A stretch of DNA of 64,000 nt from a virus. Shown here piece after piece: positions 28,793 through 30,414 of the stretch (positions are counted from its first letter, which is position 1; every line of letters starts with the position of its first letter). Location of the stretch: IMG/VR virus record IMGVR_UViG_3300032246_001180, positions 96,001 to 160,000 of that record. One strand, written 5' to 3'. The notes beneath the pieces were generated by a model. That model saw only the letters and a program-made list of their open reading frames with translations. It was not told where the DNA came from and did not search any database. The position numbers and the translations under genes were made by a program.

Positions 28793-29629
28793 ATGAAAAC
28801 TATAAAAACAATCTTTGGTATCACGTTAATTGGTTTATTACTGATTTCGATTAACAATGCGTTTGCATGGACACAAAGACCTAATTTTCCACAAGAGCAA
28901 TGTGCAGTTCACGCACCTTACGGATTTCCACAGGCCGCAGGTTCACCAATCTGCCGTCAAGCATATTATGTTGACTATGATGCAGCTGCAAAGTTGCCAA
29001 AGGTTGTAACATACACTTTAACACCACCAAATGCAATAGGTTGTGTTGCTAGAACTAACGCATTTACAGCAGACCAATCGATTCAGAATGGCGCCAGACC
29101 AGATGACTACGCAGCCACAGGTTACGATAAAGGTCATATGGCACCTGATGGTGATTTAAGTTGGGACCAACAAGTTGAATATGAATCGTTTTTGATGACC
29201 AATATGAGTCCTCAAGCAGGTTCATTGAACAGAGGTATTTGGAAGTTGTTGGAAACATCTGTGCGTGGCTGGGTTGTACAACGCAATCAAGTATATACAA
29301 TTTATGTTGGTGGTGTTTACAACGCAAATGATAAACGAATTGGTACTGGTGTTGTTGTACCAAATGCATTTTATAAAATTGTAATTAATCAATCAACAAA
29401 CGAAGTTGCTGGTTGGTATTTCCCTCATGTGGCACCTTATCCAAATTTAGGTAATGATTTGACAAAGTTTAGAGCAAGTGTTGGACAAATACAACAAGCA
29501 GCAGGTGTACGTTTTGGTTTCCCAGCAACAGCAAGAGAGATAGCAGTTGGTCAAGAATGGCCAGTTGATTATGGTGCATTAACAAACGCTAAGCGTGCTA
29601 AATGTGGTAGTAATGCATCTGCTGATTGA
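28793..29629 (+). CDS. secreted DNA/RNA non-specific endonuclease (NucA/Serratia family)
   Basis: signal peptide; YDKGHMAP, SF.MTNM.PQ, NRGIW..LE, VP..FYK. Confidence 0.92.
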   Translation: MKTIKTIFGITLIGLLLISINNAFAWTQRPNFPQEQCAVHAPYGFPQAAGSPICRQAYYVDYDAAAKLPKVVTYTLTPPNAIGCVARTNAFTADQSIQNGARPDDYAATGYDKGHMAPDGDLSWDQQVEYESFLMTNMSPQAGSLNRGIWKLLETSVRGWVVQRNQVYTIYVGGVYNANDKRIGTGVVVPNAFYKIVINQSTNEVAGWYFPHVAPYPNLGNDLTKFRASVGQIQQAAGVRFGFPATAREIAVGQEWPVDYGALTNAKRAKCGSNASAD

Positions 29630-29654
29630 CTTTTTAGCAAGGAGCATATATAAT
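29626..29654 (+). promoter_or_regulatory. sigma70 promoter upstream of the tmRNA
   Basis: TTGACT-N17-TATAAT. Confidence 0.7.
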
Positions 29655-29784
29655 GAACTTTAAACGTAAAAAAACAAAGAGGTGCGTTCGTTGTACAATG
29701 TGTACACAGCATCGATGGTTAGGTAACAACAAAGGTCGTAAACCTATCCGTGATATGCGAAACGAACAAAAAGAATTGTTGTAA
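29653..29784 (+). CDS. small basic Cys-containing protein (not in ORF track)
   Basis: AAGGAG SD; MNFKRKKTKRCVRCTMCTQHRWLGNNKGR... Confidence 0.55.
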   Translation: MNFKRKKTKRCVRCTMCTQHRWLGNNKGRKPIRDMRNEQKELL

Positions 29785-30068
29785 TCCCTTCTAAGCGAAG
29801 GACTTCTGGACGGGGGTGCGAATCCCCCCAGCTCCACCAATTATCTACTTTTATCCGGAAACAGATAATTATTCGGATTAAATAAAAGTGTATAATTGAT
29901 GGGGCTGCATAGTTTCGACAGGGGTAGATAGTAAAGACGGCAACACGGTAGGCGATGACCGTTAATCAAGCAAAACAAGTAAACGCAAACGATAGCGAAT
30001 ACGCATTAGCAGCTTAAAGGCCGCTTAGGGTTTTTGGCAGTTTATCCTCGTAACAGAATTAAACTGCC
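29785..30068 (+). ncRNA. ssrA: circularly permuted (two-piece) tmRNA; tag ANDSEYALAA; outer ends approximate
   Basis: acceptor piece: T-arm GGGGG-TGCGAAT-CCCCC and CAGCTCC-A-CCA ending 29839; intervening hairpin 29840-29900; coding piece starts GGGGCTG at 29901 (G3.U70); tag frame 29985-30017; inter-piece pairing CTAAGCG/CGCTTAG. Confidence 0.95.
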
Positions 30069-30138
30069 TAAATAAATTTACTAGACAACACACACAATCG
30101 TCTAGTAATACACATAAACACACACAAGGAGTAAAAAT

Positions 30139-30414
30139 ATGAGTATGACACCCTATGAAATTCGCCTAGAACTTTTAAAAATGGCGAAAGATATGCTAAC
30201 TGACGAATACTACGGTAAACGTGAAGTAATCAGCAACGAATGGTCAACCAAGGTAGAAGAATCCAAAATCAACGGAACACCTTCACCATCCCATCCAGGT
30301 TTTCCATCATTCCCCTCGGAAGAAGAAATAATCAAAAAAGCAGAACTGCTTAACGGATTCGTTTCTCAAATTCCACAACAATCCGAAATAAAGACGAAAA
30401 AATCTAATTCGTAA
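30139..30414 (+). CDS. conserved T4-like phage hypothetical protein
   Basis: AAGGAG SD; MTPYEIRLELLKMA...II.KA..LNGFVS. Confidence 0.8.
   Translation: MSMTPYEIRLELLKMAKDMLTDEYYGKREVISNEWSTKVEESKINGTPSPSHPGFPSFPSEEEIIKKAELLNGFVSQIPQQSEIKTKKSNS

Follow-up and report, generated by a model that had tools for sequence, protein, structure and literature searches.

tmRNA is the RNA that rescues stalled ribosomes. Work on Caulobacter showed that one precursor is cleaved there to give two RNAs held together by base pairing (Keiler, Shapiro and Williams 2000, cited in PMC9004378), and a two-piece tmRNA is also described for Betaproteobacteria (Sharkady and Williams 2004, cited in PMC9004378). Among phages, one-piece tmRNAs are carried by the mycobacteriophage Bxz1 group and Bacillus phage G (PMC4131195). 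Two-piece forms accounted for 53 of 133 unique tmRNA structures in 402 phages, 50 from aquatic samples, and phage Melnitz is among the published examples (Buchholz et al. 2022, PMC9004378). The 2025 tmRNA database holds 79 bacteriophage sequences (PMC11915505).

The gene analysed here is located in a window of 64,000 bp, bases 96001-160000 of a 168,242-bp virus record (IMGVR_UViG_3300032246_001180) rated 100% complete. This tmRNA gene is phage-encoded, complete and circularly permuted, and its tag frame is intact. The order of acceptor piece, spacer and coding piece is the same as in Caulobacter, whose tmRNA belongs to the alpha lineage and is chromosomal, whereas the window gene is a phage gene. 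With the betaproteobacterial two-piece tmRNA (RF01850) it shares the helices, the PK1 sequence of Alcaligenaceae and the 3' pseudoknot hairpin, and the tags are similar (ANDESYALAA in Alcaligenaceae, ANDSEYALAA in the window). Unlike the betaproteobacterial genes, it resides in a phage, is only ~77-80% identical to the closest bacterial genes found, has no terminal terminator hairpin, possesses a CCTTC/GAAGG hairpin, has its promoter ~120 nt upstream instead of adjacent, and carries a G at position 55 of the T-loop.

The nearest cultured relatives are the phages Melnitz and HTVC008M, with ~39-40% identity to the window phage in gp6. Like the window phage, they combine a permuted ssrA with a T4-like (Kyanoviridae-like) genome and a replication/late-transcription module containing gp33 (PMC9004378); they also resemble it in that no phage SmpB was found and in the G at T-loop position 55. 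Their tmRNAs are of the alphaproteobacterial type (RF01849), whereas that of the window is of the beta type. A glutamine riboswitch lies just downstream in Melnitz, whereas the Rfam search found no riboswitch in the window, where, in contrast to both phages, orf91 and a cell-wall hydrolase gene stand between the tmRNA and gp33. The one-piece tmRNAs of the Bxz1 group and phage G are likewise phage ssrA genes that presumably use the host SmpB, but they have the standard gene order.

Anatomy and structural conservation of the gene

ARAGORN returned one permuted tmRNA at 29747-30108 (+) with the tag ANDSEYALAA. The Rfam model tmRNA_permuted (RF04321) matched 29777-30017 with 150.9 bits against a cut-off of 47 (E = 6.4e-30), covering model positions 1-213 of 213, and a search of the phage's own genome gave the identical result. 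The model beta_tmRNA (RF01850) matched 29724-30071 with 140.8 bits against a cut-off of 84 (E = 5.8e-43), covering model positions 1-331 of 331; this alignment has two non-canonical pairs in a single 4-bp helix and a deletion of the model's terminal terminator hairpin, which the window gene lacks. Such a combination of features is far above chance. The parts of the gene are as follows.

29777-29839, plus strand: acceptor piece (3' tRNA-like half), from sequence, ARAGORN and Rfam
29777-29781, plus strand: outer-helix strand TGTTG of the acceptor piece
29802-29808, plus strand: P2a strand ACTTCTG, pairing with CAGGGGT at 29919-29925
29812-29828, plus strand: T-arm GGGGG-TGCGAAT-CCCCC, with the T-loop TGCGAAT at 29817-29823
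29829-29835, plus strand: acceptor 3' strand CAGCTCC, with the discriminator A at 29836
29837-29839, plus strand: encoded CCA, end of the acceptor piece
29840-29900, plus strand: intervening spacer of 61 nt, a hairpin, presumably excised
29840-29844 with 29892-29896, plus strand: spacer closing stem, extending the acceptor stem
29901 to about 30068, plus strand: coding piece, from sequence, Rfam and ARAGORN
29901-29907, plus strand: acceptor 5' strand GGGGCTG, with G29903.T29833 as G3.U70
29908-29918, plus strand: D-loop analogue CATAGTTTCGA of the coding piece
29919-29925, plus strand: P2a strand CAGGGGT of the coding piece
29941-29945, plus strand: outer-helix strand CAACA (within GGCAACA) of the coding piece
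29946-29961, plus strand: PK1 hairpin CGGT/ACCG of the coding piece
29985-30017, plus strand: tag frame from GCA at 29985 to TAA at 30015-30017, ANDSEYALAA-stop, from ARAGORN
30009-30024, plus strand: stop-codon stem containing an A.C mismatch
30036-30068, plus strand: 3' hairpin with a 9-bp stem and a pseudoknot-forming loop that can pair with upstream AGGG
30078-30108, plus strand: downstream hairpin TTACTAGAC...GTCTAGTAA with a 12-bp stem and a CA-rich loop of the CACACA type

The acceptor piece of the window gene carries the CCTTC/GAAGG hairpin as a local element. The GTAAAC context upstream of the resume codon GCA is conserved.

The preliminary description had placed the 3' tRNA-like half upstream of the 5' half, and both the sequence and the permuted ARAGORN call agree. 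The hairpin-forming spacer of 61 nt that it had noticed is located at 29840-29900, and the G3.U70 pair, the ACTTCTG/CAGGGGT pairing, the PK1-like stem, the tag ANDSEYALAA and the atypical T-loop were all found at the positions it gave. It had also proposed ARAGORN in permuted mode and the Rfam models as checks; these returned the permuted call and scores above the cut-offs of RF04321 and RF01850. One further pairing, between CTAAGCG (29791-29797) and CGCTTAG (30022-30028), stood only in part: the two segments are complementary in the window, but among 31 homologues they are paired in 42% of cells against a shuffled mean of 41%. As a conserved pairing it was rejected, as it displays neither conservation nor covariation and clashes with the stop-codon stem; CGCTTAG overlaps the 3' strand of this stem and the start of the 3' pseudoknot.

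The structural analysis was based on an alignment of 31 homologues, comprising 22 viral contigs, two phage-like contigs from metagenome-assembled genomes (MAGs), six bacterial sequences and the window. The proposed structure is paired in 83.7% of cells against a shuffled mean of 71.8%, and 33 pairs were changed on both sides, a number reached by none of 500 shuffles. When the partner columns were slid, pairing fell to 43-54%. Pairing reaches 92-100% in six core helices, one of them the spacer closing stem, and compensatory changes are numerous: the T-arm (100%), the acceptor stem (100%, its G.U invariant and three pairs changed on both sides), P2a (99%), the outer helix (96.6%), the spacer closing stem (93.5%, four of five pairs changed on both sides) and the PK1 hairpin (91.9%). 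The 3' pseudoknot stem is paired in 87.7% of cells, and the stop-codon stem, at 68.4%, is weaker than the core helices. The low column count of the 3' hairpin is due to alignment register only; checked sequence by sequence, a perfect stem of 7-9 bp is present in 23 of the 31, with unrelated stem sequences and the conserved loop TCCTCGTAACAGAAT.

The spacer folds into a hairpin of -20.3 kcal/mol (z = -3.56), and none of 200 shuffles folds as well. Conservation is confined to its closing stem; the spacers of relatives are between 2 and 175 nt long, and in the close relative L240 the 28-nt inner hairpin is missing. The covarying closing stem and the freely varying interior lend indirect support to the predicted cutting of the precursor. 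The spacers of up to 175 nt in L053 and L109 resemble protein-coding sequence. A possible promoter inside the spacer (TGTATAAT, directly ahead of GGGG) is not conserved in relatives and was treated as chance.

The hairpin at 30078-30108 may be a 3' boundary or processing element. Next come a CA-rich leader and the strong Shine-Dalgarno sequence of orf91, which starts with the ATG at 30139 (region 30078-30138). Downstream hairpins with other stems and CACACA-type loops also occur after the tmRNA in L008, L018, L114 and L058.

Genomic context and the upstream small gene

The phage is a T4-like myophage with the baseplate genes gp5, gp6, gp7 and gp8 (hub and wedge) and with gp59, gp32 and gp33. 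These last three encode a helicase loader (gp59), a single-strand DNA-binding protein (gp32) and a late-transcription coactivator (gp33). The tmRNA locus belongs to the DNA-replication/late-transcription module, upstream of gp33, gp59 and gp32. The genes before it are, in order, a PD-(D/E)XK exonuclease, a 2OG oxygenase, a DNA/RNA non-specific endonuclease and a 43-codon ORF, and the tmRNA is followed by orf91, a SleB-type cell-wall hydrolase, gp33, gp59, a deoxyribonucleotidase (dNMPase), a second 2OG oxygenase and gp32. The record contains 24 tRNAs, clustered away from the tmRNA. A search of the complete phage record for SmpB (PF01668) gave no match, so the host SmpB would be needed. Neither a megablast of 20 kb against cultured phages nor a tblastn of orf91 against phages gave a match. 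The features surrounding the gene are listed below.

28793-29629: DNA/RNA non-specific endonuclease (PF01223), flanking the tmRNA upstream
29626-29654, plus strand: promoter-like site TTGACT-17-TATAAT of the sigma-70 type, 11 of 12 consensus matches
29653-29784, plus strand: 43-codon gene for a small basic CxxC protein, frame kept with respect to L240
30415-30993: SleB-type cell-wall hydrolase (PF07486), flanking the tmRNA downstream

The families PF01223 and PF07486 also flank the tmRNA in L124, a contig considered below.

The site at 29626-29654 is the only strong promoter-like site, ~120 nt upstream of the tmRNA gene, and its -10 box runs into the start codon (ATG) of the 43-codon ORF. Both hexamers and their spacing are retained in L240, and the pre-tmRNA transcript likely starts from this site. 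Most relatives and the bacterial genes have a TATAAT box a few bases before the first helix. Since this single good promoter is ~120 nt away and runs into a real small gene, the 5' end given for the acceptor piece is provisional.

The last codons and the stop of the 43-codon gene lie inside the region of the 5' outer-helix strand of the tmRNA. It differs from L240 at 15 bases, 10 of these differences being synonymous; judged by these substitutions and the kept frame, the gene is real and under purifying selection. The protein has an invariant block FKRKKTKR followed by CTxC and then RWLGN, and it matches no Pfam or PHROG family. Metagenomes yielded six homologues, and the contigs of three were fetched: those in L336 and L338 lie within phage tRNA arrays, and that in L337 lies beside protein genes with no tRNA. 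An ArfA-like rescue factor with an mRNA truncated by processing was considered for this ORF and rejected, because the homologues end differently and have no tmRNA nearby. Since the homologues occur elsewhere without a tmRNA, the overlap was treated as compaction and not as a functional link.

Distribution and origin of the gene

Viral contigs were scanned twice. The first scan, with a universal 3' tRNA-like motif, gave at least 119 loci, of which 96 of those listed have a permuted tmRNA; the second, with a 36-nt motif specific to the subtype of the window, gave at least 120 loci. Together the two scans revealed at least 201 viral loci with a permuted tmRNA. Homologues of the exonuclease, gp33, gp59 or gp32 are present in the fetched flank of 121 of 201 such loci among the matches listed. 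Above the cut-off of RF04321 are also Melnitz (113.4 bits), HTVC008M (90.6 bits), Pseudomonas phage SM1 and a 169.5-kb relative of the window phage.

The SM1 gene (L002/L184, KU245542.1 54071-54370) is a beta-type permuted tmRNA of 118.6 bits with the tag ANDTSFDVRLAA. PaMx31, UF_RH6, PA_L9 and FBPa45 match by BLAST alone and, with SM1, are 93-kb Pseudomonas siphophages. Records of the SM1 type either have no annotation at the match site or place a 'hypothetical protein' over it; for SM1 itself the former applies. Some related phage tmRNAs (loci L218-L335) have tags of 23-33 residues, e.g., a family ending GAANESRFALAA.

The identical tag ANDSEYALAA is present in at least nine other viral contigs. 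L240, which has the same tag, aligns collinearly with the window over 5.9 kb with 90.8% identity, and in L332 133 nt of the coding piece are identical to the window before the contig ends. The flanks of L240 are 91% identical to those of the window, and from GTTTCGAC as far as the 3' hairpin the mature coding pieces of the two do not differ; on this comparison the tmRNA is under purifying selection.

These results alter two statements of the preliminary description. It regarded phage tmRNAs as mostly one-piece, which is at odds with the published 53 of 133 (PMC9004378) and with the loci from our scans. It also tied the novelty of the gene to the lack of a near-identical catalogued relative, and the novelty falls because of the contigs with the same tag, the collinear L240 and the identical coding piece of L332. 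Phage two-piece tmRNA genes are already published and are common in aquatic T4-like phages, and the window gene is an ordinary member of this group.

With regard to origin, the exact 29-nt PK1 motif was detected in Alcaligenaceae (Advenella, Pelistega and Brackiella, tag ANDESYALAA) and in two MAG-binned contigs. The nearest bacterial tmRNAs found are those of Alcaligenaceae, ~77-80% identical to the window, and a DNA search of 401 sampled Burkholderiales genomes gave no closer match. Of 151 that were scored, only 4 were above the beta_tmRNA cut-off. In the genome collections, the nearest neighbours of the window gene are L136 (from an 'Alteromonadales' MAG) and L124 (from a 'Crocinitomicaceae' MAG), with 78-91% identity. 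Their contigs have 38-40% G+C and carry phage-type endolysin, nuclease and hydrolase genes, and they are probably phage contigs binned into unrelated bacterial MAGs. A quick maximum-likelihood tree grouped the window with L136 and L124 (SH-aLRT 96) and then with other viral sequences, and placed this phage group as sister to the Alcaligenaceae clade with weak support (86).

As the bacterial sampling was biased by the motif used to find the genomes, the claim about origin is limited to two points: judged by the model match and the tree, the permutation came down from the beta lineage, and the later evolution of the gene took place in phages. The independent permutation that the preliminary description had offered as one option was rejected because of the full-length beta_tmRNA match and the shared, covarying helices; the position in the tree next to Alcaligenaceae also speaks against it. 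Recent capture from a sequenced bacterium is unsupported, with a best bacterial match of ~77-80%.

Relatives at the same phage locus are of either the beta or the alpha type, the latter comprising Melnitz (L185), HTVC008M (L186), L071 and L017; L187, L044 and L081 were set beside the window in this comparison of types at the exonuclease/gp33/gp59/gp32 module. The occurrence of both types at one locus suggests replacement in place, or an exchange of RNA genes between phages of different host classes.

The tRNA-like elbow and the proposed function

In a canonical T-loop, T54, pseudouridine 55 and C56 contact the GG of the D-loop, and the contact between G18 and pseudouridine 55 is established for tRNA elbows. 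The window T-loop TGCGAAT has a G at position 55, where U or pseudouridine is expected, and its D-loop (29908-29912) has AG. Across 176 non-redundant permuted tmRNAs among the matches listed, the combinations were U55 with GG (110), G55 with AG (58), G55 with GG (7) and U55 with T at this D-loop position (1); U55 with AG occurred in 0 of these 176. To explain G55 on the tree of phage permuted tmRNAs, at least 14 changes are required, and six independent pairs with good support show the D-loop changing in one consistent direction (median p ~0.03). The window and L240 (3800-4420) differ in the mature RNA by a compensatory T-stem pair, by G55/A59 against U55/U59 in the T-loop, and by CATAG against ACAAGG in the D-loop. 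By analogy with the G18 contact of tRNA, the G55/AG combination looks like a compensated tertiary pair and not like decay. The G55 pattern was detected in 0 of 401 sampled bacterial genomes, all of them Pseudomonadota, against 20 of 81 for the U55 version, and the pattern of the first viral scan favoured A or T at position 59. In the second scan, in which the T-loop was unconstrained, G55 was present in 8 of 76 among the matches listed, and most keep U55. The idea that G55 is strictly phage-specific was softened, given that the bacterial sample consisted of Pseudomonadota only. No paper on the coupled T-loop/D-loop switch was found among those searched.

The window gene is genuine and, by homology, almost certainly functional. 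It is very probably a working betaproteobacterial-type two-piece tmRNA of a lytic T4-like myophage, a reading that draws on its anatomy, family, covariation, conserved position and spread, from which we infer the following course of events. The gene would be transcribed as a single precursor, probably from the early-type promoter at 29626-29654, and in the folded precursor the spacer hairpin would prolong the acceptor stem. Host RNase P would cut 5' of G29901 and host 3'-processing enzymes would trim to the CCA at 29839, whereby the 61-nt spacer would be lost. Three helices would then hold the two pieces together, with 7 bp in the acceptor stem, 7 bp in P2a and 5 bp in the outer helix. The host AlaRS would charge the RNA via G3.U70 and the A73 discriminator, and the host SmpB and EF-Tu would bring it to ribosomes stalled on broken mRNAs, where translation would resume at the GCA at 29985 and add ANDSEYALAA. 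This tag keeps the xNDxxYALAA pattern, which is recognised by SspB and ClpXP in E. coli. Together with the 24 tRNAs, the likely benefit would be that ribosome rescue is kept up while phage nucleases and host shut-off create truncated mRNAs. Points that count against this reading are the G at T-loop position 55, the A.C mismatch and weak pairing of the stop-codon stem, the lack of the terminal terminator hairpin and the distant promoter within reach of a small gene.

The recurrent change of the elbow at a fixed locus could mean that the phage tmRNA is functionally distinct, a protected or orthogonal rescue RNA, which we consider unlikely. If true, through a variant without pseudouridine 55 or one escaping a factor that reads the T-loop, the phage would carry a rescue RNA distinct from that of the host and not a spare copy. 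It is quite unlikely that the gene is a defence-proof replacement for a host tmRNA destroyed by a defence nuclease or inactivated by the phage, with the G55/A elbow making it distinguishable or resistant. The recurrence of G55 together with the D-loop change in phage tmRNAs, its distribution in the sampled Pseudomonadota given above and the endonuclease gene directly upstream would suit such a replacement; no defence or nuclease link was found, U55 is the state of most phage permuted tmRNAs (G55 in 8 of 76 in the second scan, among the matches listed), and the tmRNA of the close relative L240, identical in other respects, has U55.

The recycling of host proteins, speculated for Melnitz (PMC9004378), appears very unlikely as the distinguishing role of the window gene. 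Here an early phage tmRNA would tag truncated host proteins for recycling or shut-off and turn their amino acids to phage synthesis, in keeping with the early sigma-70 type of the upstream promoter-like site, the canonical degradation ending YALAA of the tag and the published suggestion itself. This proposal differs from ribosome rescue in the proposed benefit only, and tagging is limited to stalled ribosomes whatever genome the mRNA came from.

A non-functional passenger, i.e., an accidentally captured bacterial tmRNA, an attachment-site fragment or mis-assembled bacterial DNA, can scarcely be credited: tmRNA genes are common integration sites of which phages can carry fragments (PMC4131195, PMC9004378), and the tmRNA region has 42-43% G+C against ~36% in the window, but both halves, the tag frame and the core helices are intact and covarying, more than 100 T4-like contigs retain the same locus, the mature RNA shows no change relative to a contig with flanks 9% diverged, and no sampled bacterial tmRNA exceeds ~80% identity.

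The window gene leaves existing knowledge unchanged, and its value lies in the annotation of a gene that is missed by ORF-based pipelines. The coupled T-loop/D-loop switch offers a small, testable structural point on the tmRNA elbow. The gene adds to the evidence that ribosome rescue is within the translation toolkit of large aquatic phages.
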